From Eledone cirrhosa (lineage: Eukaryota), in the NCBI GenBank assembly GCA_964016885.1, contig CAXHJY010001592.1:1-64000 (forward strand): DNA of 64,000 nucleotides. Reading direction: 5' to 3'. Shown here piece after piece: positions 3,085 through 60,174 of this stretch; within the stretch, counting starts at the first letter, position 1, and each line of letters starts with the position of its first letter. The notes below the pieces were generated by a model that had not been told where the DNA came from, searched no databases, and was given only the letters and a program-made list of their open reading frames with translations. The position numbers and the translations under genes are program-made.

Positions 3085-3232
3085 TATCATCTCATTTCTA
3101 CAGCTGAGTAAACTGGAGCAATGTGAAATAAAGTGTCTTGCTCAAGGAAACAACACATCACCCAGTCTGAGAATTGAACTCACAACCTTTCGATTGCAAG
3201 GCCAATGCTCTAACCACTAAGCCATGTGCCTC
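3085..3232 (-). mobile_element. Second tRNA-derived SINE family fragment
   Basis: The minus strand reads GGCTTAGTGGTTAGAGC (A box) ...GTGAGTTCAATTC (B box)...GTTTCCTTGAGCAAGACAC. Confidence 0.6.
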
Positions 3233-6618: not shown

Positions 6619-6878
6619 ATTATATATATATATTATATATATTATATATATATATTATATATATATTATATATATTATATATATATATATATTATATATA
6701 TATTATATATATTATATATATATATATTATATATGTATATATTATATATATTATATATATATATATTATATATATATATATTATATATATTATATATATA
6801 TATATATTATATATATATATTATTTTTTAATAAGTTTCCAGATTCCACGCTTTGCCTGGATACTTATATGAGAAGAGT

Positions 6879-6958
6879 CTTCCCTGACGACGGAATGATT
6901 CTCTGTGTTTTCTTCTGAAAATTTATTTATTCCATTCCAGAAACTAATTAGTTGGAAG
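6879..6958 (+). ncRNA. Type I hammerhead ribozyme, long stem II
   Basis: CTTCC-CTGACGA-C-GGAATG...CATTCC-A-GAAAC-TAATTA-GTT-GGAAG. Stem I is CTTCC/GGAAG and helix III is palindromic (AACTAATTAGTT). Confidence 0.85.
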
Positions 6959-7400
6959 TGATATTTTAGTAAGTAAGTTAATTTTATAATTTTCTTATTT
7001 TACGTCTCTCATATTATTGTTCTGCAACCCCATGCATTGAACCACAAAGTTACTAAGACAAAATCTATATATTTGCTAGCATTGATATGCATCTGTATGT
7101 ATATATATGTTACTAGATATTAATTCTTTATAATTATCTCCAAATTATTTGTCGAGCAATATTGGCCATGACTGCTGCTATGGTAGCAGGCAGGCCGCTG
7201 TCTTATTAGTAAACCACTTTCCACTGATTGACCTCGATGTCACGTGATTGATTCCTTTTGAATTAGCCACCGACGCAGAGGCAGGGATTTTCTCAATGGC
7301 TAGGAATTCAGTCCACGCTTTGCTATTTTCTATCCACTGAATTATTTTTTAATAAGTTTCCAGAGTCCACGCTTTGCCTGGATACTTAGATGAGAATAGT

Positions 7401-7480
7401 CTTCCCTGACGACGGAATGATTCTCTGTGTTTTCTTCTGAAAATTTATTTATTCCATTCCAGAAACTAATTAGTTGGAAG
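7401..7480 (+). ncRNA. Type I hammerhead ribozyme (second tandem copy)
   Basis: Same motif as 6879-6958, 522 bp downstream. Confidence 0.85.
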
Positions 7481-7678
7481 TGATATTTTAGTAAGTAAGT
7501 TAATTTTATAATTTTCTTATTTTACGGCTCTCATATATATTATATATATATATTATATATATATATTATATATATATATATATATATTATATATACGTTA
7601 TTCCGGGTTGAATCGGAGGTAACCACAGTAAGTAAGGTACTCAATACATAGCAGAGTATAACAGTTTTAATATAGATG

Positions 7679-7729
7679 AGATTCTACAGGACTAGAACTG
7701 TTTCATTCATTAGAAATCATCAGGAATCT
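7679..7729 (-). ncRNA. Type I hammerhead ribozyme
   Basis: Reverse complement of 8703-8753. Confidence 0.85.
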
Positions 7730-8702
7730 GGGTATCAAAAAATAAATATGGTATTTATAGGTCTCTACAAGTGGTAGGAGAGGGTGGGGAGTGGGATGGG
7801 TGCAGGTCATTGGTTGATAGAAAAGGGAATTCATTAAAAGCTAATTCTACAAAGCTATAGTTTATTTTTATTTTTATTTATTTATGTTTTTAGAGTAACA
7901 AGGGCAGACAGAATTCTATAAACAGGTTCCGGATGGCATACCATTCCTTGTCAATAAGTTTCTCTTAAGCTAACAGATGTCTATAAAATCAGTGGGGGGT
8001 CATTCATGGTCGATAGAATTAAAGAAAAGGGAGATTCTTACTATTATCTTCGAACTTCTCTTAAACTAATCAACTATATGCCAAAAATCAACAGACACAT
8101 TCACAAAAAAACAAAAAAACACATACTCATTTTTATATATGTGTGTGTGGTTTTATGTGTGTATATGTGTGTATATGTGTTTGTGTGTGTGTTTATGGTT
8201 GCGCGTAAGTGTGTGAGTGAGTATGTGTTTTTTTGTTTTTTTTGTGAATGTGTCTGTTGATTTTTGGCATATAGTTGATTAGTTTAAGAGAAGTTCGAAG
8301 ATAATAGTAAGATATGCACTCAGTATTTTGAATCTGTCTGCAGAATTCTCTAGACCTTTGTCACTTAGTAGAACCTTAATGACTTTAGCTTTTAAAGAAT
8401 CTCCTTTTCTTTAATTCTATCGACCATGAATGACCCCCACTGATTTTATAGACATCTGTTAGCTTAAGAGAAACTTATTGACAAGGAATGGTATGCCATC
8501 CGGAACCTGTTTATAGAATTCTGTCTGCCCTTGTTACTCTAAAAACATAAATAAATAAAAATAAAAATAAACTATAGCTTTGTAGAATTAGCTTTTAATG
8601 AATTCCCTTTTCTATCAACCAATGACCTGCACCCATCCCACTCCCCACCCTCTCCTACCACTTGTAGAGACCTATAAATACCATATTTATTTTTTGATAC
8701 CC

Positions 8703-8753
8703 AGATTCCTGATGATTTCTAATGAATGAAACAGTTCTAGTCCTGTAGAATCT
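8703..8753 (+). ncRNA. Type I hammerhead ribozyme
   Basis: AGATTC-CTGATGA-TTTCTAATGAAT-GAA-ACAG-TTCTAGTC-CTGT-A-GAATCT. Stems I and III are perfect, stem II is short, and the cleavage triplet is GUA. Confidence 0.85.
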
Positions 8754-8910
8754 CATCTATATTAAAACTATATTATATATATATATATATTATATATATA
8801 TATATATATTATATATATATATTATATATATATATATTATATATATATATATATTATATATATTATATATATATATATTATATATATATATATATATTAT
8901 ATATATATAT

Positions 8911-15284: not shown

Positions 15285-15367
<83 letters not shown>

Positions 15368-15654
15368 AACAAATAACGAAACGAAATTAAATTTCGTTTC
15401 GCTTCTAACTCACTTTTGTATGACTGACACTTAAACAATTAAGTTAAAGTGTACATCCACATATGTATACGGAAGTATTAGTATGCATATAAATACACAC
15501 ATGTATACATATGTACATGTACTGAGTTTTTCACTAGACACTTTACAGTGAGTGTCAGCTAGTCTGTATGTAACCACACAGATGGACCGGGTTTTAGAGT
15601 CATACGAGTTTTCAAGGAAAAACATTTCCTCTATTCTCCAGAGGGCCAGACAGG

Positions 15655-15698
15655 AATATTGGACTAGTTTCGATGTATTACATCTCATCAGCAATATT
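15655..15698 (-). ncRNA. Type I hammerhead ribozyme
   Basis: Reverse complement of the 16489-16533 motif, with stem-loop II 1 nt shorter. Confidence 0.85.
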
Positions 15699-16122
15699 TA
15701 CCCATCTTCCGGCTTCTCTGGAGAATTGTAAAAGCACATATCGTTATATGCTTTTTCTATGAAAATTAGTAGTGGGTAGACCAATTTGCATAGAACGTGA
15801 GTTATTGTACGCACCGGTTCAGCGGAAACGATAAAAACAAATAACGAAACGAAATTAAATTTCGTTTCGCTTCTAACTCACTTTTGTATGACTGACGCTT
15901 AAACAATTAAGTTAAAGTGTACATCTACATATGTATACGGAAGTATTAGTATGCATATAAATACACACATGTATACATATGTACATGTACTGAGTTTTTC
16001 ACTAGACACTTTACAGTGAGTGTCAGCTAGTCTGTATGTAACCACACAGATGGACCGGGTTTTAGAGTCATACGAGTTTTCAAGGAAAAACATTTCCTCT
16101 ATTCTCCAGAGGGCCAGACAGG

Positions 16123-16167
16123 AATATTGGACTAGTTTCGATGTTATTACATCTCATCAGCAATATT
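16123..16167 (-). ncRNA. Type I hammerhead ribozyme
   Basis: Reverse complement of the 16489-16533 motif. Confidence 0.9.
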
Positions 16168-16488
16168 TACCCATCTTCCGGCTTCTCTGGAGAATTGTAA
16201 AAGCACATATCGTTATATGCTTTTTCTATGAAAATTAGTAGTGGGTAGACCAATTTGCATAGAACGTGAGTTATTGTACGCACCGGTTCAGCGGAAACGA
16301 TAAAAACAAATAACGAAACGAAATTAAATTTCGTTTCGCTTCTAACTCACTTTTGTATGACTGACGCTTAAACAATTAAGTTAAAGTCACGTTCTATGCA
16401 AATTGGTCTACCCACTACTAATTTTCATAGAAAAAGCATATAACGATATGTGCTTTTACAATTCTCCAGAGAAGCCGGAAGATGGGTA

Positions 16489-16533
16489 AATATTGCTGAT
16501 GAGATGTAATAACATCGAAACTAGTCCAATATT
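16489..16533 (+). ncRNA. Type I hammerhead ribozyme
   Basis: AATATTG-CTGATGA-GATGT-AATA-ACATC-GAAAC-TA-GTC-CAATATT. Canonical core, GUC triplet and palindromic helix III (ACTAGT). Confidence 0.92.
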
Positions 16534-16960
16534 CCTGTCTGGCCCTCTGGAGAATAGAGGAAATGTGTTTCCTTGAAAACTCGTATGACTCTAAAACCCG
16601 GTCCGTCTGTGTGGTTACATACAGACTAGCTGTAAACACTCACTGTAAAGTGTCTAGTGAAAAACTCAGTACATGTACATATGTATACATGTGTGTATTT
16701 ATATGCATACTAATACTTCCGTATACATATGTAGATGTACACTTTAACTTAATTGTTTAAGCGTCAGTCATACAAAAGTGAGTTAGAAGCGAAACGAAAT
16801 TTAATTTCGTTTCGTTATTTGTTTTTATCGTTTCCGCTGAACCGGTGCGTACAATAACTCACGTTCTATGCAAATTGGTCTACCCACTACTAATTTTCAT
16901 AGAAAAAGCATATAACGATATGTGCTTTTACAATTCTCCAGAGAAGCCGGAAGATGGGTA

Positions 16961-17005
16961 AATATTGCTGATGAGATGTAATAACATCGAAACTAGTCCA
17001 ATATT
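16961..17005 (+). ncRNA. Type I hammerhead ribozyme
   Basis: Identical to 16489-16533. Confidence 0.92.
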
Positions 17006-17269
17006 CCTGTCTGGCCCTCTGGAGAATAGAGGAAATGTGTTTCTTTGAAAACTCGTATGACTCTAAAACCCGGTCCGTCTGTGTGGTTACATACAGACTA
17101 GCTGACACTCACTGTAAAGTGTCTAGTGAAAAACCCAGTACATGTACATATGTATACATGTGTGTATTTATATGCATACTAATACTTCCGTATACATATG
17201 TAGATGTACACTTTAACTTAATTATATATAGTATTAAGGATACTATTTATGGTTATGTATATACTAAAA

Positions 17270-17600
17270 CTTTTTATAGTTATAATAATCTTATATAAAT
17301 AAAATACACATGCATGCCCCACGTGTAACTATTGCATACACTAACTACTTCAAACTGTCCTCTTGCATTATCTTCGTAAACTGCCGATGTTGTATTTTAA
17401 CTTTAATTTTGTTTTAATATGATTTTAATTTTTGAATATAAATTGGCATGCAAAAATATTATAATGGACGTAACCCCACCGTGCATCGATATATACATAT
17501 GTTTCTGCATGTCTCTTGTGTTGGAAAGGAGGTCATGTATGTAAACAATCATTGAAAAATTGCTCCGAAGACTCCAAACCTCGGTTTGGACGAAACTATT
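17270..17600 (+). mobile_element. Diverged pLTR fragment of the PLE family at 44866-50100, with a truncated HHR
   Basis: Shares CACATGC.TGCC.CAC, AAAGGAGGTCAT and AATTGCTCCGAAGA.TCCAAACCTCGGTTTGGA.GAAAC with 49600-49890. Confidence 0.75.
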
Positions 17601-18305: not shown

Positions 18306-18548
18306 CATATATATATAAATATATATTGTGTGTGTGTGTTGAGATATATGTATCTGTGTTCGTGTCTATTCTGTCGTTATAAATGTAGCAGCTGTTCTCA
18401 ACACATAACCGAATAACAGAATATGTCTGGTTAAATCTAGTGACACAGTTTTACGTTATTGTCATAACTGTCGACGCTGTGACATTTATGCTGAAATAAA
18501 CGCAGACAATAGGGACATGTTTGTGTGTGTGGGTGTGAGTCCGTTTAT

Positions 18549-19555
18549 CTATTAGCATGTCTATCTATGGGCGCCTGGCACACTGAGTGTGCCCAGGCGC
18601 TCACCGCCCTCTGGCAGGCGGATCCGGTTGTCAGTGGAGACTCCACCGCAACATTCTATAGAGGGCTGGTACGCAGCAGGTGCGACGACGCCCTCGGAGA
18701 AGCCCTAGACATGGAGGAGGACGAACTGGCCAGCCTGTTCGGTAGGACATTCAGCCCGGGACCTATGGACAACTTCCAGAAGTCCCTGGCCTGGCAGTGC
18801 TACCGAGGGGCTTTACCCGTTCGAGAAAGGCTCTACAGACACGGGCGCCCGGGTAGGGACCCCGCCAAAAAGATCTGTCCCAGATGCGTGTGCGACGAGG
18901 AAACCGTTGCACACGCATTGGTACACTGCTCGGGCGTAGCCGATCTGTGGGGCTATGTCGAACAACTGCTGTCAAGGGTGGGACCGATCCGGTTGACCAC
19001 CGAGTCTATTGTAATGATCAAGCCGCCTCCCCCCTTCAAAGATGAAGCAGAGGCGGTGTTTCTGTGCGTAATAGCCATGGCGAAAGAGGTTGTATGGTGG
19101 ACGCGTCTGAAAGGACTGAGGTCGGGCACCTTTCTCTCTGGCCAACAACTGGTCCGTTTCTTCCGATATCATTTCGGAAGAAGGATCAGGATGGAGAGAG
19201 AGGTGCTGCACCCCAGCCGTTTCTATGAAAGATGGGTGAAAGTGGCGAGAATGGCCCGTGTGAATGGGCCTTCACTCTACATCAGACTATAGGTGAGGAA
19301 GATGAAAGACCAAGGGAGCACCCCTTCTCTGTGCTCCTGAGGAGAAGGGTTGCACACTTTTTTCGGGGGTGTGTGCGACCCCCCAAGGCGCCTCCTCTCT
19401 ATTGAGGATTTTGTTAAAAATTTTATTTTTTGTTATATCTTATTTTATTTTTATATTTTGTTATTGCCTCCTCCTTATTGAGGACGCCTTTTTGTGTAAA
19501 CTCCCCCCTTTGTACTTGTCCCACTTTTGATGCCCTAGTGGCAAATAAAAGAAAT
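18549..19555 (+). mobile_element. L1/Tx1-clade LINE 3' end (zf-RVT region plus 3' UTR), (TCTA)n flanks
   Basis: WQCYRGALPVRERL...CPRCVCDEETVAHALVHC in ORF 18525-19292, then AATAAA and (TCTA)n. A diverged 3' UTR copy lies on minus at about 54190-54435. Confidence 0.85.
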
Positions 19556-23743: not shown

Positions 23744-24625
23744 AATTGTTTCTACATTTGGCACAAGGCCAGCAATTACCCAGTGCATTACTGGTACTTT
23801 ATTTTATCGACCCCGTAAGGATGAAAGGCAAAGTTAACCTCAGCGGGATTTGAACTCATAATGGCAAGGACCGTAACTCTATACGTCAAAGCATGGCGTC
23901 AGACCCTCTACCGATACTGCCAATCCACCGCCCTTCTAATATGAAATAATTGTTTCTACTTTTGGCACAAGGCCAGCAATTACCCAGTGCATTACTGGTA
24001 TTTTATTTTATCGACCCCGTAAGGATGAAAGGCAAAATCAACCTCGGTGGGATTTGAACTCAGATCGTAAAGGGACGTAACTATGCTGGAAAGCATGGCG
24101 TCCGACCCCCTACCGATACTGCCAATCACCTCGATGAAATAATTGTTTGTACGTTAGGCACAAGGCCAGCAATTACCCAGTGTGATTAGTTGTATAGTAC
24201 AGTTGTACAGCTGTAATTAACTCCCTTTTTTACACAGCTCATCACACATACCTTTATTATTGTGAGGGCGGTGGATTGGCAGTATCGGTAGAGGGTCTGA
24301 CGCAATGCTTTACAGCATAGAGTTACAACTCTTTATGATATGAGTTCAAATCCTGCTGAGGTTAACTTTACCTTTCATCCTTACGGGGGTCAATAAAATA
24401 AAGTACCAGTTACGTACTGAGGCTGATTCAATCGACTTTCCCTTCCCCCAAAATTGCTGGCCTTGTGCCTATATAAGAAATCATTATTATAAGGGCGGGG
24501 GATTGGCAGAATCGGTAGAGGATCGGACACCATGATTAGCAGCATAGAGTTACGGCCCTTTACTGTCCGAGTTTAAATCCCGCCGGTGTCGATAAAATAA
24601 AGTACCAGTAATGTACTGAAGTCGA
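23744..24625. mobile_element. Cluster of five tRNA-derived SINE copies
   Basis: Minus strand: about 23744-23934, 23948-24127 and 24140-24183. Plus strand: about 24265-24490 and 24492-24625. Confidence 0.85.
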
Positions 24626-26214: not shown

Positions 26215-27212
26215 GTTTTCTCTTTCTCTTAATTTCGAGTATATTTTTTTTGACCGGCCACCTTCCTGGTGGCAAGGTTGTAAAAGAAAAGAAATTGTCA
26301 TCCCTTGAATCGCAATAATGTTTTGCATATTTTGAAGGTGCCAGCTATCGCAGCCATTTGTAGACTATGAATTAGGGAGCTGCGCTTTTTGTCCGCAAAT
26401 CCAAGTTCGGTCATACTTTGGTCCAAGCGGGTTGGTATATAACCCGTAGCACCAATAATGATGGGTATGAAGCTAAAGGTGTATCTTGGATACTGGATTT
26501 GTAAGCTCCTCATCAATGGTCCGTAGATGTCCTCCTTCTCCTGTATTTTTCTGACAACGTTTACATCAAGTGGGCAGCTTATCTCCACAACAGAACACGT
26601 TTTCAATGTGTGGTCCCAAACTACAATATCAGGCCGGTTGTGCTTTAATTTGGTGGCAGTTTTTATTTTCAGGTTCCACCAGTATTCCTTAGTGCCATCT
26701 GTCTCAATATATTCTTCCTCGTTTGTTGTTAATTTTGTTTTCCGAAGTGCGTTCCAGATAGTTCTAGCTATCCCATCGTGTCTCATGGGGAGGTAGTAGC
26801 GAGATGACATTCTTTCGCAGCTGGCAACAATGTGGCTTACATCCTCGATCTTTGTTTTACATAGCCTACATTTATTGTCAGCTGCTGGCCCTCCTCTTTT
26901 GTGCAGCAGATATTTGGTAGGGAGTTCTTGTTCCTGTATTGCATAGAGATATCCCTCAAGGTGTGATGTCATAAACTTGTCGGAACTCCATGCCAGGCTT
27001 TTTGAGTGGTTTATCCCCTCTATGGTCTGTGTTTTACGCCTCAAGTATCCATGCACAACTTTCTCTGTAAATTGGTCAATTTTTTTTTCTTGTTTGAACA
27101 TTGAATAGGATCTTCCGATTTCTCTGGGTGAGAGATTTATATCAGGCTTTATTCCATATCTCTCCTCCAGATCAGTCGCTATTCTAATGATATTTCTTTT
27201 TTCATGCTCATA
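26215..27212 (-). mobile_element. R4/Dong-like non-LTR retrotransposon 3' end with restriction-like endonuclease, inserted in (CATA)n
   Basis: AIQEQEL.TK, CRLC...EDVSHIVASC (CCHC), RHDGI, RPDIVVWD...VEISCP...KEDIY in the open frame 27212-26298. (TATG)n lies on both sides. Confidence 0.88.
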
Positions 27213-27372
27213 ATGTATGTATGTATGTATGTATGTATGTATGTATGTATGTATGTATGTATGTATGTATGTATGTATGTATGTATGCATGTATGTATGT
27301 ATGTATGTATGTATGTATGTATGTATGTATGTATGCATATATGTATGTATGTATGTATATATGTATGTATAT

Positions 27373-28665
27373 GGGAGAGATGACCCCTTAGCCTTTGTCA
27401 AGGCAGAATTCTAGGAGAAGGAAAACTCTGATATAGCACCTGCAACCCTGATGGTATCCAATGATGTTGACTTGTTCTTCTTTTTGGTAAATATCATCTT
27501 GGTTAAGAGAGTGGGACTGGCTTTGTGCAGTGCCTTTGCTCACTATAAAAGCTTCACGGCACAAGCATTGCTTTATATCTGGAGATCTCTCTGCACTTGT
27601 CGTCACATGGTCCCATGGGCCCAGCACTAAGTGTCAATAATTGTCACAAGTGTAGTGTTTGTACCAGAGTTTTCAAGTCGCTGGCTGGACTAAAAAGTCA
27701 CACTCGTTCAGCGCATCGGTAGGGGTTCTCCTACATGGATATAAAGTAGTGGCCGTACTCGAAAACGAGTTGGCAGCCACGATGTATGTATGTATGTATG
27801 TATGTATGTATGTATGTATGTATGTATGTATGTATGTATGTATGTATGTCAGGTCACCAGTTGGTGCTACTGGTAACATGTATGCCAGTACAACCCGTCT
27901 CATGGTCGGGTCGTTGGCGACTAAACTGGCAACCCCACCAATGTTTCTTGGTGAGGAGGGTGACTTTCGACACCCTGCAGGACTAAAAACAAAACCTGTC
28001 AAAGGGCAAAGGAGCTCTTAAGAGTCAATGGCCATCCAAAATCACCGGGAGAGATGACCCCTTAGCCTTTGTCAAGGCAGAATTCTAGGAGAAGGAAAAC
28101 TCTGATATAACAGCTGCAACTCTGATGGTATCCAATGATGTTGACTTGTTCTTCTTTTTGGTAAATATCATCTTGGTTAAGAGAGTGGGACTGGCTTTGT
28201 GCAGTGCCTTTGCTCACTATAAAAGCTTCACGGCACAAGCATTGCTTTGTGTCTGGAGATCTCTCTGCACTTGTCGTCACATGGTACCATGGTCCCAGCA
28301 CTATGTGTCAATAATTGTCATAAGTGTAGTGTTTGTACCAGAGTTTTCAAGTCGCTGGCTGGACTAAAAAGTCACACTCGTTCAGCGCATCGGTAGGAAT
28401 TCTCCCACATGGATATAAAGTAGTGGCCGTACTCGAAAACGAGTTGGCAGCCACCATATATATATGTATATATATATGTATATATGTGTGTATGTGTATG
28501 TATATATGTATATATGTATTTATATATATATGTATATGTATATATATATATGTATATGTGTATGTGTATGTATGTGTATATATATGTATATGTGTATGTG
28601 TGTATAGATGTATGTGTGTATATATGTATATGTATATATGTATATATGTGTATGTGTGTATATAT

Positions 28666-36174: not shown

Positions 36175-36222
36175 GAATAATTGCCTTATGTTGTTTATTA
36201 CATAACTATATATATATATATA

Positions 36223-36740
36223 TAAACGGAAAAAATGAAACGAAATTTCATTTCCCACTCTTAGTACGACTGTTACTTAAATATAAGTATGTACACGTAC
36301 ATACATATATGTATACAGACGTACAGTAGTATGTATATATATATACATACATGCACACATATATATATATATGTACGTATGGATTCACCGAACATTTATT
36401 ATAATGCTCGGTGTGTTTGTAAACAAACATCCCGTATTAAGCCGTAGTATCCAGCAACCATCGTTGCTCGTTTTTTCAACACTGACAAAGGAACGCTGTA
36501 CTAGTTTCAAGCTTATTAGCTATCGTCAGCAACGTATACCTTCCTGCCAGATTGTTGAACGTATATACTTACCTTATGCATATTAACGGCTGAGTAGCCC
36601 AATTTGCATATCGAGTGGGTTAATTAGCCGGGTGCACCGAAAACGATAAACGGAAAAATGAAACGATATTTCATTTCCCACTCTTAGTACAGCTGTTACT
36701 TAAATATAAGTATGTACACGTACATACATATATGTACGTG
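36223..36740 (-). repeat. About 1.2 copies of a ~424-bp HHR-containing monomer (retrozyme-like)
   Basis: AAACGGAAAAA..TGAAACGA.ATTTCATTTCCCACTCTTAGTAC recurs at about 36224 and 36648. A partial second locus lies at about 55545-55770. Confidence 0.8.
36493..36535 (-). ncRNA. Type I hammerhead ribozyme
   Basis: Minus strand: ACGTTG-CTGACGA-T-AGCT-AATA-AGCT-T-GAAAC-TA-GTA-CAGCGT. Confidence 0.85.
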
Positions 36741-44813: not shown

Positions 44814-44870
<57 letters not shown>

Positions 44871-44908
44871 GAAATATAAGAATCAAAGAACTGTTCAAAA
44901 CATTATTG

Positions 44909-44955
44909 TGCTTACAGCTGTTTCCTCCAAACCGAGGTTTGGATTCTTCGGAGCA
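44909..44955 (-). ncRNA. Type I hammerhead ribozyme, U4C core variant
   Basis: Reverse complement of 49851-49897. It is sense to the ORF and about 1.45 kb downstream of the stop. Confidence 0.75.
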
Positions 44956-46398
44956 ATTTATTAATGCATGGACAGTTATATGACCTCCTTTTCAGCCGAG
45001 AGACATACCAATACATATTCAAACATTGATACATATTCAAACATTGTGGGTCAACATTCATTACAAAATTTAGAGTGGCAGTACACACTTCGAGATTACA
45101 TTTATATTAATAGGTACAATCAAAAATCAAAGATATAGGTTAAAGTACAACATGAAGATAAGTGGTTATATAGTGCAAATGTTATATGTGTGGCACGCAT
45201 GTGCGTCTTGTTTATATAGTGTGGCAGAGAGATATGTGTGGTAGAGGCACTTAGGTAGGTAAATAAGAGTGTTAGGTTGGTAGATCTGGTGGCAAAGTCT
45301 TTATATGATTGATGTAGTCTGTGTGTGGAGAAATATTATAAGCATTAAAGATAGTGCAAGCATTAAAAGTGTTATAAGTATTGGAGATGCACAACGCAGG
45401 GATGTCAAGTAATTCATGTACTTCGGCATTTTCATGGTCAAGGGAGTGTATATTTCGATTATATGCCTTTCACATAATCCACGACAATCCAGTTAGAGAT
45501 CGTAGTCTGGTGTTCTTTAGTTCGATACAGGAGGTTGTTACGTTTCGAGAGACGCCATTGAATACCGGAAGTGTGTGTGTGGCTAAGGGGAGTTAATGCA
45601 TGCGGGGAGGTAACTCTGGGGTTTCTATATCTAGCCATTAAAATGTGTCCCAATATGGACCCTAAATTCTATGGTGAGGTGCACCTTCCAAGAGAGACTT
45701 TTAAAGCATAAAGTGTACTAACTATAGAGTAGTTTAACTAAATTATGCTGAAGGTGATCATATTATTATTAAGGTGGATTAACCCATCTTAAGGTGCTAC
45801 AAATGGAAATTATAGATGATGAGCGAGGATTCTAAATTAATGATCTCTGTGGTTGTAGTCTGCTCATATGACCAGGCGCGGTGATTGCAGGATTGCTTCA
45901 GGACCCAATGATCTCTGGTAAGATCTGGGTCATCGCTTGCTACATTGGATGTCGAAAGATAATCGTCCCCAGGCAGGCCAAAGGTCAATCCGCAGTCCTC
46001 GCGACCCCTCTCTGACCGTCAGATCATCCATATACGTACAACCCGCACGGCAGTTGCATTGCATTCACTCACTGCGCTCAGCAGCCCGGTCCTACTGGTC
46101 AACAGCGCTACTCGATTAAATCATTTTACATCTGTCTAAGGAAGGTGTTTCCTCTGCCCAACACCATCCAACCGATCAATTCATGCTCAAATTACCCTTA
46201 GAGCGGTGTAGTGCCGTCCAGGTGGGTGGATGTTGTCACACCTGCCGTAGAGGTATAAATGGGTATTTTCCCTGCGAAGGGTTCCAGAGGGATGTCGTTG
46301 TTTGTGTTATAATGGATCAGCTAGTGTTGGGTATGTAGTATAGGGTGTGTCTCTGGTGTTTGATGCTAGATGTGGTGTTAGGTTCCAGTCCGACATTG

Positions 46399-48763
46399 CT
46401 ATATATAGGGCTTAAAGTTTTGGAAGGAATGTCTGAGGCGGTGTTGGCAAGTTGCAAACACCTCCGATTTTTTGTTAAGTAGGTTACGGTTGGAGAAGAT
46501 AATATTGTGTGTCTCTAGTATACAGAGGTTACAGAATTTATTAGGTGGTTTGTACGAGGTCGCGCTGCCTATCACTTCCCATTTGAGTGTGTATGGTTTA
46601 TTTTTAGATTTTAGATAGTGTATGTAGCTAGAAAGTGAGGTGGAGTTGGCTAGGCTGTGCTTTTTGAACGAGTGGATGTGCGAGTTATATCTAATTTTGA
46701 AGCAGTTAGAAGTGGAGCCTACATAGGTTTCTGAAGAGTTATTAGTCGTGACTGTGCATGAGTATATGACATCCTTGGTTAGGCATTTTTTATCTAAAGG
46801 GCAGGTTCTATTAGCTCTACAGTTACAATTATTCTGTGCGTTAGTCCGCTGGTTATAATGCAATGCGGAAGTCTGTGTGGTGGATATAGGATTTTGGGTG
46901 TTCAGGTTGACAACCCTGGTGTTATTACTTATACTAGTGTTATTTCTATTGTTACTGCCGTTGCTATTGTTGCTTGCTACAGTGGTATTTAGAGGGTTTG
47001 CATCCCGTTGTGATTTTGTTTGTTGGAAGTAAGAACTAATTTTACTATTATTGCTGCTAGCTATGTGGTATGCTAAGTTAGGCGTCGTAGAGTATGAGAT
47101 TTTAATGGTGTTTTTGTTTAAGAGGTTGTGGTACTTGTGTCCTAGAGGGAAGTTTTTATCTAGTAGTGAGAAGAAAGCCCTAGGTATGTTGGTGGAGACA
47201 TTTAGGTTGAAAGGAGGGTTGAAAAATGTATTATTTCTTCTTCTATTTTTGCTTTTAGTGTTTGGTGTGTTGCTTCCTCCTAAGGCCTCACAGTAGTTTC
47301 CATGGTAATGGTTACTTCCGGTGGCACCCTCCGCTTTGGTGTACTTGTGGTTGCTATTCCTATTATTAGATTTCCTCATGGACATGTTGTGCGAGATGAT
47401 GTTGTAGCTATGTGTTTTCTTAGGTAGGAACTCTATTTCTATATTATGGCCGGAGCTAGCTAATGCTTGATTGTAATATTGTGAGTTTTTGCTAAATATG
47501 TTTGCGTCATAGGACAGACTAGAGATTCTATTGGACACCCCCTTAGAGATAGAGTTTAATATTGATCTAGGGTGATTAGACTTGGTATCTACGTAAATAA
47601 GTTTCTCATTAGGCTTATGGAAAGGTGTATATATTTTTGAGTCTAGGTATAGTGTGGCGTCAAGGAAGTTAACATTTTTAGTGTTTTTGTCCATGGTGAT
47701 ACTAAGGTTAAAGTTTTTGAATGTCTTATGCAGTTGTTTTCTAGTTCTTTCTATATTAAATTTTTTATATTCTATGAGTAGAAGTGCATCATCGCGGTAC
47801 AAACCACCGTTGAGGTAAGGGAGGTCTTTATGGATTTCATTGAGGAGGTATAGGCCGACCAAATCAGTGACCTGCGCCGAGTCACTAGATCCCATGGTTA
47901 TGTCGAAGTTGTTGTGCGTATCCTTGCGTGTCCATAGTTGGTCCTCGAAGGTGATTATGGTTTTACGGGCCGCAAGGATGACATCAACCTGGGCTCTAGT
48001 CAGGTCGCTATTGGTCATGGCCATGATAAGTGCCTTATTTAATAGGATAGGGGAAATAGAGGTGTAGTATGAATTGATATCAAATTGAATAAATTTTTTG
48101 TTCTTATTATTCTTGATATCCTTAAACCATTCAATTACTTCACCCGTATTTCCCCATTGTTTAAGGTGTATCTTGTGTTTAATTTGTGGGATGATTTTAT
48201 CCAAAATCTTCTTGCTGATAATACCAATGTCGGACTTGGAAGGGCAGATAAGTCTTATCGTGGGGTTGCTGATGAAGTTCTCCTTATGGTCCTTCAGAGA
48301 GAATCTAGGGGGGTTCGGAGTGAAAGGTTGTGTATGCCTCTGTAGTCCTAGTTTAGACACTATATTATAACCCTCTACATTAATATCTTCTAAGTTTTTC
48401 AAGGTGGTTTTTTTGTAGCTTTTATGTAGTTCATTATATATAAACTTTCTATAAGTAATATAATCTAGGCTGTATATGTTATTAGTTTTATCTGCGTGTA
48501 CAATAATTTTATTACTAGTTTTGAATCCACTAATAGAAGTGTTAAGTTTGTTTAAGAAGGTGTTGCTTCTAATATGGTGCTTATTGTATTTAATGTTCTT
48601 AACTAGTTTAACTAGGTCATTTTCAAAGGAGTTAATTAGAGTGTTATGAGGGGGGCTTTTAAAGGTTTTAAAGCCGAAGGAGTCAAAATTGTTAGTATTA
48701 TTCAAGTTGTTAGATTTGTTTCTATCATAATGGAATGTCCTCCATCTCACTCTATTGATAAAT
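46399..48763 (-). CDS. PLE reverse transcriptase plus GIY-YIG endonuclease (Naiad-like), uninterrupted but slightly 5'-truncated
   Basis: 783-aa ORF: FINRVRWRTF (annotated start is an internal GTG), HADKTNN, RLICPSKSDIG, FIQFDINSYYTSI, FDITMGSSDSA, GLYRDDA, NFLDATL, FNPPFN, CNCRANRTCPLDKKC, IYSC..YVGST..FKIRYNSH, CNLCILE. Confidence 0.95.
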
Positions 48764-49850
48764 GTTGTACGTATATGGATGATCTGACGGTCAGAGAGGG
48801 GTCGCGAGGACTGCGGATTGACCTTTGGCCTGCCTGGGGACGATTATCTTTCGACATCCAATGTAGCAAGCGATGACCCAGATCTTACCAGAGATCATTG
48901 GGTCCTGAAGCAATCCTGCAATCACCGCGCCTGGTCATATGAGCAGACTACAACCACAGAGATCATTAATTTAGAATCCTCGCTCATCATCTATAATTTC
49001 CATTTGTAGCACCTTAAGATGGGTTAATCCACCTTAATAATAATATGATCACCTTCAGCATAATTTAGTTAAACTACTCTATAGTTAGTACACTTTATGC
49101 TTTAAAAGTCTCTCTTGGAAGGTGCACCTCACCATAGAATTTAGGGTCCATATTGGGACACATTTTAATGGCTAGATATAGAAACCCCAGAGTTACCTCC
49201 CCGCATGCATTAACTCCCCTTAGCCACACACACACTTCCGGTATTCAATGGCGTCTCTCGAAACGTAACAACCTCCTGTATCGAACTAAAGAACACCAGA
49301 CTACGATCTCTAACTGGATTGTCGTGGATTATGTGAAAGGCATATAATCGAAATATACACTCCCTTGACCATGAAAATGCCGAAGTACATGAATTACTTG
49401 ACATCCCTGCGTTGTGCATCTCCAATACTTATAACACTTTTAATGCTTGCACTATCTTTAATGCTTATAATATTTCTCCACACACAGACTACATCAATCA
49501 TATAAAGACTTTGCCACCAGATCTACCAACCTAACACTCTTATTTACCTACCTAAGTGCCTCTACCACACATATCTCTCTGCCACACTATATAAACAAGA
49601 CGCACATGCGTGCCACACATATAACATTTGCACTATATAACCACTTATCTTCATGTTGTACTTTAACCTATATCTTTGATTTTTGATTGTACCTATTAAT
49701 ATAAATGTAATCTCGAAGTGTGTACTGCCACTCTAAATTTTGTAATGAATGTTGACCCACAATGTTTGAATATGTATCAATGTTTGAATATGTATTGGTA
49801 TGTCTCTCGGCTGAAAAGGAGGTCATATAACTGTCCATGCATTAATAAAT

Positions 49851-49897
49851 TGCTCCGAAGAATCCAAACCTCGGTTTGGAGGAAACAGCTGTAAGCA
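49851..49897 (+). ncRNA. Type I hammerhead ribozyme, U4C core variant
   Basis: TGCT-CCGAAGA-A-TCCAAAC-CTCG-GTTTGGA-G-GAAAC-AGCT-GTA-AGCA, with palindromic helix III (ACAGCTGT). Confidence 0.75.
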
Positions 49898-50415
49898 CAA
49901 TAATGTTTTGAACAGTTCTTTGATTCTTATATTTCATATAACTGCTCTGTAAATCATCTGATGTTTTTACATTGAGCTACTTAACTTACTGGTAATAAGG
50001 TAGTAATACATTACTGCCTACCACTATTTAGGGTGTGTGTAAAATACTTACAACTGCTTAAGGTTTTGTGTTTACATAACCATAAATAGTATAACTAATA
50101 CTATATATATATATAAACTAATTATCCATATTAAAAAAATTGTTTATAAGCCATAAATAAAAACGTACTTCCTCATCCGTTTTTACATGTCGTGGTCTTT
50201 GCCTATCAAGATCTCACGTTCAATCAACTACTACAACATCAAAAAACTATGTAGCCAAACCACAGTTGCCGTAATATGTGATTGAAAGCAACGATGCTTA
50301 ATTTCATCAAATGCTTGCTAAAAAAAAAGACAACATATCGTTACCATATTTCTAATAAAAGATTCTGCCAATGGTTTTCAATTCATTTTGAAAATAATCA
50401 ATACTTTAGAGTGAT

Positions 50416-52081: not shown

Positions 52082-52087
<6 letters not shown>

Positions 52088-52197
52088 ACGAGTAGGACCC
52101 CGACGGCTGAGCTCAAGCCGTTTCGACGGCTAATTCTGTCCAGAATTAGCCGTCGAAACGGCTTGAGCTCAGCCGTCGGGGTCCTACTCGTTCCTAT
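52082..52197. repeat. Near-perfect 116-bp palindrome made from the 3' half of a hammerhead ribozyme
   Basis: 57-bp arms around a TC centre. Each strand reads ...GCCGTC-GAAACGGCT-TGAGCTC-AGCCGTC-GGGG, and the right arm continues to about 52277 before (TA)n. Confidence 0.85.
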
Positions 52198-52379: not shown

Positions 52380-52545
52380 ATGGTATTTCCCGGCGTCGAA
52401 GACGCTACTTTTTCCCCAAAATAAGTCTTAAAAATCTACCATGCATCATAGAGGCCGAAGGTTGTTTATCCTTTTTTTTCAAATATTTCGTTGTCAAAAT
52501 TGGGGTGCGTCCACGAAGACGAAGCGTCTTCGGCGCCGGATATAT
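52380..52545. mobile_element. pogo/Tc2-like MITE
   Basis: Inverted ends CCGGCGTCGAAGACGCT / AGCGTCTTCGGCGCCGG. Confidence 0.65.
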
Positions 52546-52596
52546 ATAATATATATATATATATTGGAAAATGTGTGTAATCCTTGGTACAGTTAG

Positions 52597-53820
<1,224 letters not shown>

Positions 53821-55104
53821 AGAAGAGCGATAAGCAGCCCGTGTGTACGAAAAAGTTGTATTTGTATATAAACAGAGTGGGTAACCAAGATTACGCCAAT
53901 GATTATGTAAATATGCACATTTTTAATGTGCAGACATGTAAGCTTGCCAGAGAATACAAATTTCCCTGTAAATTGAAAGATTGATAAACACCCTTAATCG
54001 ATTTTCGGACCTAGTTGTGTCCTCATCAAAAGGCATGTATACAACCACAAGGAACCACGTATTTGATGGCCTTATATTTCCATTGGCTGGACGTATTAAT
54101 TTATATCTTAATTAACTACAAACAGGAACGATAATTATATGCAAATTAGCACGTATATCTCAGAGTACTACTAATAGCGAATGATAGATAGATAGATATG
54201 TTTCTTTATTAGCCACAGGGGCACAAAAGAAGGGGACAAATACAAAGGGGGAAGTTTACATACAATAAAAACGTGTAAAATGTTATCACAGATGGAATTT
54301 AAAAGTTAGTCGATTTTCCCCAATAGAGGGAGACAGTTTATATGGGTAACACATACCCCCGAAAAAAATGTGCAACCCTCATCTCCAGGAGTACGAAGAG
54401 CTTGTACTCCTTTCCTCTCCTCCTCCTTTTCCTCAATAGATAGATAGGTAGATAGATAGAGAGATAGATAGATAGAGAGATACATAGATATATAGATAGA
54501 GAGAGTATGAGAGAGAAATATATATATATAAGTAGACCTCGGTTTCACTGCTAGTATCGGTTGCATCTCAGCGTACTCAATAGGTAATGTTATGTAAAAT
54601 CCCAGAGTAGACACATAGTTTTTCGCTTCGATGCAACACACGTAAATGGGTACCTTCAATCTATACCCGTACTCGAGTTTCTGCCACACTTAATGCAGCA
54701 ATACAGTGAACAGCATCCACTGTCTGCATTTATTATGCAGCAATGCCCAATCGGCGCATGTCGCTTCATCAGCGGGTTTTGTCTAATCAATAACCAATCG
54801 ATCGACAGAATTCAATTCCAGTCCGTGTCGGCTATGACAGTGAATGCGACGGTCAACAGAGTATTACATTAGCAACTGAAATCCCTACGCGTCATCACAA
54901 TGCCGTCAACTGATTGGCTATTGGTTCAGAAATTTACGTGACGGTAGGAGACGAAATTCAAAATAGTTCCGCTCCCGCCATAAGCTCTCAGCCAACGTAT
55001 CTCAAACACAAATTAACAATTAAGTGAAACATTGGTTATTAGAGAAAATCAGTCTCTAATCGCTGTACAATAGAATGGTAGCATTCAGCTCCAGTCTCCA
55101 AGTA

Positions 55105-55481: not shown

Positions 55482-55547
<66 letters not shown>

Positions 55548-55784
55548 TGTACACGTACATACATATATGTATACAAACGTACAGTAGTATGTATATATAT
55601 ATACATACATGCACACATATATATGTACGTATGGATTCACCGAACATTTATTATAATGCTCGGTGTGTTTGTAAACAATCATCCCGTATTAAGCCGTAGT
55701 GTCCAGCAACCATCGTTGCTCGTTTGTTCAACACTGACAAAGGAACGCTGTACAAGCTTATTAGCTATCTATAATATATGCAAT

Positions 55785-56615: not shown

Positions 56616-56735
<120 letters not shown>

Positions 56736-56957
56736 AATTAAGTTAAAGATGTACATCCATATATGTATACTGAAATACTAGTATGTATATGAATACACAC
56801 ACGTATACATATGTAGATGTACCAAGTTTTTTCACTGGTCACTTTACTGTGAGTGGCCAGCTATTCTGTATGTAAACACACAGACAAACCGGTTTTTAGA
56901 GTCATACTGGTTTTTGAGGAAACACCTTTCCTCTATTCTCCAGAAAGCCAGACAAGG

Positions 56958-57002
56958 AATATTGAACTAGTTTCGTTGTTGTTACAACTCATCAGCAATA
57001 TT
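56958..57002 (-). ncRNA. Type I hammerhead ribozyme
   Basis: Minus strand: AATATTG-CTGATGA-GTTGT-AACA-ACAAC-GAAAC-TA-GTT-CAATATT. Confidence 0.9.
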
Positions 57003-57769
57003 TACCTATCTTCCGGCCTTTCTAGAGAATCGTAAAAGCACATATCGTTATATGCTTTTTCTATGAAAATTAGTAGTGGGCAGACTAATTTGCATAGAGT
57101 GTGAGTAAGTACCGGTTCAACGGAGACGATAAAAACAAATAACGAAACGAAATTAAATTTCGTTTCGTTTGTAACTCACTTTTGTATGACTGACGCTTAA
57201 ACAATTAAGTTAAAGATGTACATCCATATATGTATACTGAAATACTAGTATGTATATGAATACACACACGTATACATATGTAGATGTACCAAGTTTTTTC
57301 ACTGGTCACTTTACTGTGAGTGGCCAGCTATTCTGTATGTAAACACAGACAAACTGGCTTTCTGGAGAATAGAGGAAAGGTGTTTCCTCAAAAACCAGTA
57401 TGACTCTAAAAACCGGTTTGTCTGTGTGTTTACATACAGAATAGCTGGCCACTCACAGTAAAGTGACCAGTGAAAAAACTTGGTACATCTACATATGTAT
57501 ACGTGTGTGTATTCATATACATACTAGTATTTCAGTATACATATATGGATGTACATCTTTAACTTAATTGTTTAAGCGTCAGTCATACAAAAGTGAGTTA
57601 CAAACGAAACGAAATTTAATTTCGTTTCGTTATTTGTTTTTATCGTCTCCGTTGAACCGGTACTTACTCACACTCTATGCAAATTAGTCTGCCCACTACT
57701 AATTTTCATAGAAAAAGCATATAACGATATGTGCTTTTACGATTCTCTAGAAAGGCCGGAAGATAGGTA

Positions 57770-57814
57770 AATATTGCTGATGAGTTGTAGCAACAACGAA
57801 ACTAGTTCAATATT
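57770..57814 (+). ncRNA. Type I hammerhead ribozyme
   Basis: AATATTG-CTGATGA-GTTGT-AGCA-ACAAC-GAAAC-TA-GTT-CAATATT. Confidence 0.9.
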
Positions 57815-58559
57815 CCTTGTCTGGCTTTCTGGAGAATAGAGGAAAGGTGTTTCCTCAAAAACCAGTATGACTCTAAAAACCGGTTTGTCTGTGTGTTTAC
57901 ATACAGAATAGCTGGCCACTCACAGTAAAGTGACCAGTGAAAAAACTTGGTACATCTACATATGTATACGTGTGTGTATTCATATACATACTAGTATTTC
58001 AGTATACATATATGGATGTACATCTTTAACTTAATTGTTTAAGCGTCAGTCATACAAAAGTGAGTTACAAACGAAACGAAATTTAATTTCGTTTCGTTAT
58101 TTGTTTTTATATATATATATATATATATACATACATACACATATACATTATCTCATACATAGGCCACATACAAACATAAACACTGTAGTGTCAAATCAAG
58201 GTAGTTTATCAAGTTCAGTGCTATTTGCATTAGATCTTATATATTAGTTTCGGATTTAGACACAAGGCCAGCAATTTGGGACGAAGTGGAAGTTGATTGA
58301 ATTATAATATAATTGACATGAAAAACAAACACATTCAATTTACTAAATCTCACAATGTCATGAAAAACCATTGACATTATATAAAAAATAATTGAGCAAT
58401 ATCTAATAAAAACAAAGAACACTATTAAAGGGAGCAACAAAAGAAGAAAAAGGAAATGAAGAGAAGAAAGAGAAAAATGTGTCAAGCCACGAAAGAAAGT
58501 GGTGTCACAGTCTGAGCGGTTTCACAGCTGCGCCTCACGGACAAAAATGGAAAAGACGT

Positions 58560-59330: not shown

Positions 59331-59656
59331 CTTTTTATTATTCTTATACATTTAAGATATTATTGTGGTTTCAGAATAACTACCTCTATGATTTTATGTA
59401 CGGAGGAATAGATGAAAGTGTTTATATTTCACACTTCATTCTTATCACAGTTATTGCTGTTCTAGCTAAATATATATTTCAAAACACACCCACTGTATTG
59501 CCATTAACTAAAATGTGTGCATTCTGAACTACGGGTTGCAGTATCATTACTACAACCTCGAGATTTATTGAGTGGGTGAGGCGTTGGCCGGAGACCGTTG
59601 AGTTAACATCAACGATTTTCGTAAACCTTGTGTTTATTATTTTACTAAGTTACTAA

Positions 59657-59977
59657 GGGCGGCGGATTGGCAGTATCGGTAGAGTCGGACACCATGCTTT
59701 GCAGCATAGAGTTACGGTCTTTACGGTCTGAGTTCAAATCCCGCGAAGGTTAACTTTGCCTTTCATCGTTACGGGGTCGATAAAATAAAGGACCAGTAAC
59801 GTACTGGGGTCGATTTAATCGACTTTCCCCTCCCCCAAATTATTGGCTTTGTGCCTATATTAGAAATCATTATTTTACGAGGTTAACTTTGCCTTTCATC
59901 CTTACGGGGTCGATAGAATAAAGTACCAGTAATGTATTGGGTAATTGCTGGCCTTGTGCCAAAAGTAGAAACAATTA
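59657..59977 (+). mobile_element. SINE dimer (long variant plus truncated short variant) with flanking direct repeat
   Basis: ATTATTTTACTAAGTTACTAA occurs on both sides (about 59636 and 59974), a likely target-site duplication. Confidence 0.8.
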
Positions 59978-60174
59978 TTTTACTAAGTTACTAAAGGTGT
60001 ACACGTAATGCAAATTGAACTAAGCATTTCGGGTACTATCTATATTCTGTATGACATATGTGTAGCGTTACTATAGCAACATTCCACCGCACATGGGATC
60101 ATACGAGTAGTTATTCTCTGATGAGGAGACAAAAATCTCTGATATGTACATAAAGACAATAGGCTTCTAATTCC

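Follow-up and report, generated by a model that had tools for sequence, protein, structure and literature searches.

The octamer ATGCAAAT stands 80-117 nt upstream of the hammerhead ribozyme core in three unrelated lineages of non-coding elements in a 64-kb window (the whole stretch of DNA analysed) from an octopod cephalopod. On balance, and with moderate confidence, we read it as a functional site for a POU factor (POU2/Oct-1 type) in an internal, probably compact RNA polymerase II promoter. The evidence comprises its conservation between two homologous repeat families, designated F1 and F2, its recurrence upstream of two unrelated hammerhead elements, F3 and F4, and its reversed orientation in one of the latter.

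Hammerhead repeats and Penelope-like elements of the window

The window is 34% GC and rich in microsatellites, retroelement fragments and SINE copies, the last of which we take to resemble octopus SINEs. It contains two F1 loci and two F2 loci, with Penelope-type junctions (Table 1). The monomers, with periods of 424, 469 and 472 bp, contain no tRNA-like part, and no frame of at least 120 aa crosses F1, F2 or F3. An earlier note on this DNA had described two diverged families; the divergence stands, the sequences being 61-63% identical, but the families are collinear and align with a local score of 78-87 (shuffle maximum, 29-30), and their treatment as independent was rejected on these grounds.

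Every F1 and F2 monomer holds an intact type I hammerhead core, with a stem I of 6-7 bp, a stem II of 4-5 bp and a helix III in which a single A-U pair is closed by a palindromic CUAG loop. At least five copies match Rfam HH9 (E-values of 6e-6 to 5e-4, 32-38 bits, against a gathering score of 52), and at the gathering threshold Rfam recovers no hammerhead in the window. The two monomers fold far better than shuffled sequences (z of -10.9 and -7.4), and 17 of the 124 consensus pairs of the monomer, including some in hammerhead stems I and II, are altered on both sides. The best explanation for these short, low-GC tandems lacking LTRs and coding frames is that F1 and F2 are octopod retrozymes of the non-autonomous, non-LTR kind, whose transcripts would be cleaved and circularised; the hammerhead anatomy and the tandem non-coding monomers thus bear out the description of the repeats as retrozyme-like. 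F3 and F4, each present once, are not tandemly repeated. A search of bacterial and archaeal genomes with the octamer-free hammerhead pattern returned three chance matches (Prochlorococcus, Paraglaciecola), which showed neither further similarity nor the octamer.

Table 1. Positions of the repeats, ribozymes, octamers and related features in the window.
Feature	Position	Strand	Remarks
F1a locus	15363-17223	both	ca. 2.2 monomers on -, then ca. 1.8 inverted monomers on +
F1b locus	56731-58110	both	tandem copies in an inverted pair, flanked by (TA)n arrays; 89% identical to F1a
F2 locus	36222-36736	-	424-bp monomer plus 92-bp repeat of monomer 3′ end, ending in (TA)n
Second F2 copy	55535-55769	-	5′-truncated, 92% identical; starts inside hammerhead
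F3	53820-54200	-	single unrelated hammerhead element ending in (TA)n; core at 54029, palindromic helix III
F4 degenerate hammerhead	60111-60160	+	core at 60118; GAAA reads GATA; palindromic helix III
Octamer, F1a	15784-15791	-	exact search
Octamer, F1a	16253-16260	-	exact search
Octamer, F1a, first + copy	16396-16403	+	candidate POU-factor site; 100 nt before hammerhead core
Octamer, F1a, second + copy	16868-16875	+	period 472
Octamer, F1b	57088-57095	-	exact search
Octamer, F1b	57677-57684	+	exact search
Octamer, F2	36602-36609	-	80 nt before core
Octamer, F3	54139-54146	+	reversed relative to own hammerhead; 117 nt before core
Octamer, F4	60008-60015	+	110 nt before degenerate hammerhead core
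Predicted hairpin, F1a	16392-16432	+	5′ arm holds octamer; 3′ arm reads as reversed octamer with one mismatch
Type I hammerhead, F1a	16478-16548	+	core at 16496; predicted cleavage after 16526
Second tandem hammerhead, F1a	16950-17020	+	core at 16968; predicted cleavage after 16998
Hammerhead, F1b	56942-57013	-	
Hammerhead, F1b	57759-57830	+	
Hammerhead, F2	ca. 36493-36535	-	
PSE-like string	17102-17121	+	234 nt after octamer, in RNA hairpin, unconserved in F2
Hydra-clade Penelope-like element (motif-based)	44866-49940	-	young insertion; 814-codon frame at 46399-48843

The insertions consist of partial tandems with an inverted, 5′-truncated partner; both ends are bordered by TA, and only one of them bears an extension. 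Since this pattern matches that described for Penelope-like elements, F1 and F2 were most likely mobilised by a Penelope-like enzyme. In F1a, the two parts of opposite strand meet at 16384-16387, the locus ends in (TA)n on the left and in a short TA run on the right, and the one-sided extension is of ca. 70 nt; in the second F2 copy, 7 nt are missing from the GAAA-helix III part. A 50-bp stretch adjoining the right end of F1a (17223-17272) recurs with 86% identity at 50060-50109, 120-170 bp past the young Penelope-like insertion.

In this insertion, inverted repeats of 1177 bp, 100% identical to each other, flank an 814-codon frame with the motifs RWR (at 33), DKT (118), YRDD (349) and CxCx5C (673). 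Its best named relative, at 38% identity, is an Argonauta hians protein, an indication of an octopod host. The Hydra clade is described as having an RWK-like motif, DKT, a CxCx5C linker, a C-terminal GIY-YIG region, a hammerhead and (TA)n targets (PMC8557442); judged by its motifs against this description, the element belongs to the Hydra clade. Fragments related to its frame lie at ca. 3.7-6.6 kb and 31-34 kb. Pfam gave no match in six of eight frames, that of this element among them, and zf-RVT in the other two; non-LTR retrotransposon fragments with zf-RVT are found at 26298-27410 (-) and 18513-19292 (+). Because a blastn comparison detected no similarity of F1-F4 to the 3′ ends of the autonomous Penelope-like elements in the window, the mobilising partner can only be inferred, and the element at 44866-49940 is a candidate for its type.

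About 10 hammerhead lineages occur in the 64 kb, none of which reaches the Rfam gathering score. At least five further types (7533-8887; 12344, +; 12766, -; 29716/31643/33548/36125; and 6363, +) are mostly situated at 3′ ends or in inverted repeats of Penelope-like fragments. Another short hammerhead tandem, with a period of 522 bp, lies between (TA)n arrays at 6819-7541 (+); its stem II is very long, its helix III is a 12-nt palindrome, and it has no perfect octamer. A further relaxed scan added no lineage and missed some of the known ones. Long palindromes (52540-53784, 2787-2950, 52082-52197 and 23781-24618; 1250 bp at 95%, the shorter ones at 66-97%) are likely fold-back insertions or assembly features and a source of spurious microRNA matches; among the best 150 of 327, microRNA matches at the E-value threshold were dismissed as microsatellite or palindrome artefacts. 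A weak tRNA-like match at 3163-3226 (-) is probably a SINE head.

Conservation and recurrence of the octamer

An exact search finds the seven octamers listed in the earlier note, four in F1a, two in F1b and one in F2, each in hammerhead-sense orientation and within the context that it gave, ATGCAAATT[AG]G.CT. The CUGANGA core follows the start of the octamer by 100 nt in the 470-bp copies and by 80 nt in the 424-bp copy, in agreement with the distances to stem I reported there (85 and 66 nt). F1 and F2 being homologous, these seven sites amount to three sequence variants (F1a, F1b and F2) of one lineage, at three loci. The whole window contains 14 occurrences, against 5.5 ± 2.4 in shuffles, but this excess arises because the F1 and F2 copies multiply the sites: with this lineage counted once the number drops to eight, which is unremarkable against chance, and the window-wide excess was therefore rejected as evidence.

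Of the 485 columns in the three-way alignment of F1a, F1b and F2, 242 are invariant. They form their longest runs in a 3′ hairpin (11 columns), a TA-rich block (10) and the octamer block TATGCAAATT (10), which is thus among the three longest of the monomer, while the halves of the catalytic core have runs of 9 and 7. In this alignment, the octamer is more conserved than most of the monomer. The probability that eight given columns are all invariant is ca. 0.004; a run of 10 invariant columns, though, arises somewhere in 19% of permutations, and the two other equally long blocks have no promoter reading.

A scan blind to the octamer, directed at hammerheads with a palindromic helix III, identified four lineages, where a shuffled window gives 0.3 hits; these are F1/F2, the Hydra pLTR, F3 (54029, -) and the degenerate F4 (60118, +). 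The sequence ATGCAAATT is situated at -80 to -117 in three of the four, being at -110 in F4 and, reversed, at -117 in F3. Neither F3 nor F4 could be aligned to F1/F2, scores being at shuffle level; a score of 28 between F2 and F4, against a shuffle maximum of 25, fell in TA-rich sequence and was set aside. F3 and F1b have 12 nt in common around the octamer, as occurs in 0.5% of shuffles, and the flanks that they share presumably resemble high-affinity POU sites. The decayed inverted partner of F4 (59373-59409) has no octamer at the aligned place, where five of eight bases agree and homology is uncertain. Just upstream of F4 there is an inserted SINE cluster (59636-59997), with a 24-bp direct repeat (96%) resembling a target-site duplication.

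Among ten other hammerhead lineages, two have the octamer within 150 nt upstream (P of ca. 0.01). The count excludes F1a, F1b and F2, as the discovery set, and 36125, which belongs with 33548 to one lineage; it includes the weak candidate 9328 as well as two degenerate hammerheads, 6363 and 60118. The octamer was found in none of the four hammerhead types at the 3′ ends of Penelope-like frames (6363, 12344, 33548/36125 and 49855), an absence that we counted in favour of the promoter reading of the F1-F4 octamers, and it is also absent from the 522-bp tandem (6884/7406), the orphan hammerheads 8709 and 12766 and the weak candidate 9328. Both hammerheads of the Hydra-clade element (44951, -, and 49855, +) lack a perfect octamer; their core reads CCGAAGA, and a one-mismatch reversed octamer lies at -229.

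Two things stand above chance: F1 and F2 have both kept the octamer, and it recurs upstream of two hammerheads unrelated to them. The evidence base is three independent lineages from one window. It is unlikely, in our judgement, that an A/T-rich 8-mer was retained in two related repeats, and is found close to two further hammerheads, by accident. Such a coincidence would fit the motif-agnostic nulls of 0.06-0.19 (with shuffled sequence, 3 of 10 upstream regions have some 9-mer in common in 19% of trials, and one with at least two G/C in 5.6%), the decay of F4 and the five remaining octamers of the window, which have no hammerhead downstream at a matching spacing. It fits less well with the motif having been named before F3 and F4 were examined, with a motif-specific P for recurrence that comes on top of that for conservation, and with a 9-mer common to the upstream regions of F1/F2, F3 and F4, for which P is 0.0016 in a set chosen partly on the result. 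A second 9-mer is shared by F1 (16414-16422) and F3 (54167-54175, +), 10 and 20 nt after the octamer, that is, at offsets one helical turn apart; it is absent from F2 and arises in 21% of shuffles.

Level of action and promoter layout

A hairpin equivalent to that of F1a, with the octamer in one arm, is predicted in F1a, F1b and F2 (-11 to -12 kcal/mol). The eight bases might then be conserved as RNA, as the hairpin arm of a circular RNA that is bound by a protein such as the partner reverse transcriptase and expressed by read-through from host or neighbouring promoters, which we hold to be quite unlikely. The folding of the monomers beyond shuffles and the equally invariant 3′ hairpin block agree with this possibility, and ribozyme-bearing elements without promoters of their own are known (according to PMC6765202). 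Against it, none of the seven predicted octamer pairs co-varies and one mismatch is tolerated inside the helix. Both F1-F2 differences in this helix fall on the arm opposite the octamer; such one-sided change favours a constraint at the DNA level, although two changes are suggestive only. F3 offers a better argument than the helix pattern: its octamer is reversed, and a double-stranded DNA site is therefore favoured, and no such hairpin forms around it (-5.8 kcal/mol). The recurrence of the octamer, with one copy reversed, hence favours a POU site acting at the DNA level.

The earlier note had further proposed an snRNA-type promoter, with the octamer as distal element and the string TCAC[TA]GTAAAGTG, ca. 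240 nt downstream, as a PSE. The string is indeed present, in eight copies, and a perfect octamer, as expected of a distal element, occurs in F1a, F1b, F2, F3 and F4. The snRNA label did not hold up on the proposed PSE, which is poorly conserved, lies in a hairpin and would place the octamer at ca. -300. In snRNA promoters, the general layout of which is described in PMC5855946, the PSE is reported between ca. -70 and -40 and the distal element between -250 and -170 (PMC9652321), and the human octamers listed in supplement S9 of PMC3499247 span -90 to -271. The F1a string matches the human U6 PSE (PMC1790723) at 13 of 19 positions, as do ca. 2% of 140-nt background windows, F1 copies included; the best matches in the corresponding interval are 11/19 in F1b, 9/19 in F2, 10/19 in F3 and 8/19 in F4, where the interval is truncated. 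The human H1 PSE has no significant match in F1a, F1b, F2, F3 or F4, and with a further PSE consensus only F1a scores (14/16). The compact interval between octamer and ribozyme likewise contains no PSE-like word (8-10/19 against the human motif). No PSE conserved across units was thus detected with the human U6 and H1 motifs, from which an octopod PSE may differ. The hairpin of the string is present in all three variants with differing sequence and co-varies, its structure being kept and its sequence not. On the proposed PSE and its spacing, membership of these repeats in the snRNA promoter class is not supported.

Human motifs are a poor probe here because invertebrate elements diverge: schistosome U6 has a predicted near-octamer at -253 (PMC5460494) and sea urchin U6 an E-box (bioRxiv 2023.01.09.523328). 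We found no description of a mollusc snRNA promoter in the parts of the literature available to us, and the window holds no snRNA gene at the Rfam gathering score. Dependence on SNAPc through a diverged octopod PSE situated elsewhere is conceivable, if rather doubtful. The classical layout itself, with a start ca. 300 nt after the octamer and read-through into the next unit, is in our opinion very unlikely. Besides the F1a match and the divergence of invertebrate elements, it could draw on the lack of a TATA at Pol III spacing and on newt satellite 2, which has such a promoter type and a matching weak helix III; it has to contend with the poor matches in F1b, F2 and F3, the structural conservation of the string and the position of the octamer outside the human range, and in these dimer loci its transcripts would probably each contain a single hammerhead.

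A ZNF143-like word lies beside the F4 octamer (60024-60035, -), matching 11/11 positions of a core motif drawn up after F4 had been seen (P of 0.002) and 12/17 of the full motif in supplement S10 of PMC3499247 (P of 0.20). Scores in F1a, F1b, F2 and F3 are at background level, so that ZNF143 as a shared partner of the octamer is unsupported outside F4.

Returning to a compact Pol II promoter, we propose that the octamer is kept by selection acting on the element and that transcription would start ca. 50-100 bp beyond the octamer, immediately 5′ of the ribozyme. A compact start is suggested by the constant distance from octamer to ribozyme in three unrelated lineages, and with it a dimer, the most monomers that any locus holds in one orientation, would give a transcript through two hammerheads and hence a full monomer, which a start at +300 would not. 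Hammerheads with such a weak helix III are thought to cleave as dimers (PMC6765202). The two would pair through the palindromic helix III, cut and free a monomer of 424-472 nt, which might be circularised, reverse-transcribed and inserted into (TA)n by a Penelope-like, probably Hydra-clade, reverse transcriptase/endonuclease, carrying with it the promoter for the next generation. In a plant retrozyme, transcription starts upstream of the ribozyme, and cleavage removed the 5′ end. Runs of T4-T6 occur inside all four monomers examined, so that Pol II is favoured and a Pol III promoter was set aside as disfavoured. An essential octamer is reported at -97/-90 in the human H1 promoter (PMC3499247), and orthologues of POU2, 3, 4 and 6 are expressed in a squid (PMC4407788). 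Between octamer and ribozyme, F3 contains CCAAT (54088) and an A/T-rich, TATA-like word (54077), and F1/F2 an invariant ATATA ca. 40 nt after the octamer, which in A/T-rich DNA are weak promoter signs.

Significance and comparison with known systems

Coats is said to have named an snRNA-type promoter of newt satellite 2 in a title of 1994, a promoter that presumably contains the octamer. This precedent, invoked in the earlier note, was confirmed at second hand from PMC2220036, in which the newt snRNA promoter is used by Pol II; the accessible text of the 1986 newt paper (PMC2114352) contains no octamer string. It is credible that the octopod repeats work like newt satellite 2, and so is their promoter motif. 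The concept is 30 years old in newts and the octopod case is new: no report of the octamer in mollusc retrozymes was found in the portions of the literature consulted, subscription journals lying outside this scope. In the hammerhead-repeat literature surveyed, as far as the texts were available, element promoters are described for newts and schistosomes only (PMC2220036, PMC6765202), and the text of PMC7229834 names none, both of its uses of 'promoter' referring to T7. Animal retrozymes reach high levels in every tissue examined, a behaviour regarded as atypical of retroelements by those who described them (PMC7229834).

An octamer/POU compact promoter ca. 100 bp before the ribozyme may, we suggest tentatively, be a recurring design of animal retrozymes, arisen independently in at least three octopod lineages and in salamanders, absent from the autonomous Penelope-like hosts and, in one lineage, doubling as an RNA helix arm. 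Were this so, it would explain the constitutive, strong expression of animal retrozymes and could supply short, strong native promoters for cephalopod transgenesis. A conserved octamer at a fixed distance in several octopod families also makes it possible to test, specifically and cheaply, whether such repeats drive their own transcription in a protostome, and it points to a cephalopod snRNA/POU promoter grammar that is still undescribed.

The human H1 RNA (RPPH1) promoter likewise has a perfect octamer, in either orientation, less than 100 bp from the start (PMC3499247). The octopod repeats differ from it and from the vertebrate DSE/PSE arrangement in lacking a PSE match and a consistent ZNF143 site, and in that the octamer is internal to a mobile repeat. 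The schistosome Sm-alpha and Sj-alpha hammerhead SINEs resemble them in having a promoter followed by a hammerhead and in needing tandem copies (PMC6765202), but use a Pol III promoter, whereas the octopod monomers have T4-T6 runs and no tRNA-like part. With Hydra-clade Penelope-like elements and their non-autonomous derivatives (Craig et al., 2021, PMC8557442) they share partial tandems, an inverted 5′-truncated copy, a one-end extension, (TA)n targets and hammerheads; unlike these, F1-F4 have no coding frame, and the autonomous hammerheads of the window lack a perfect octamer.

The non-LTR retrozymes of metazoans (Cervera and de la Pena, 2020, PMC7229834) are similar in their type I hammerheads, low-GC tandems from dimers upward and structured monomer, and in that coexisting Penelope-like elements are proposed as partners, as they are here; they are typically of ca. 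300 bp, and the octopod monomers are longer and known here from DNA alone. Closest in anatomy are newt satellite 2 and axolotl HHR_Amex1, in which short non-coding monomers are likewise arranged in tandem and the type I hammerhead has a helix III of a single base pair closed by a palindromic tetraloop (PMC7229834). Newt satellite 2 has an internal snRNA-type promoter, whereas no conserved PSE was found in the octopod repeats, which differ further from the salamander ones in their mollusc host, their length (424-472 bp against ca. 330 bp), their Penelope-type inverted and tandem insertions in (TA)n and the presence of the octamer in three unrelated lineages.
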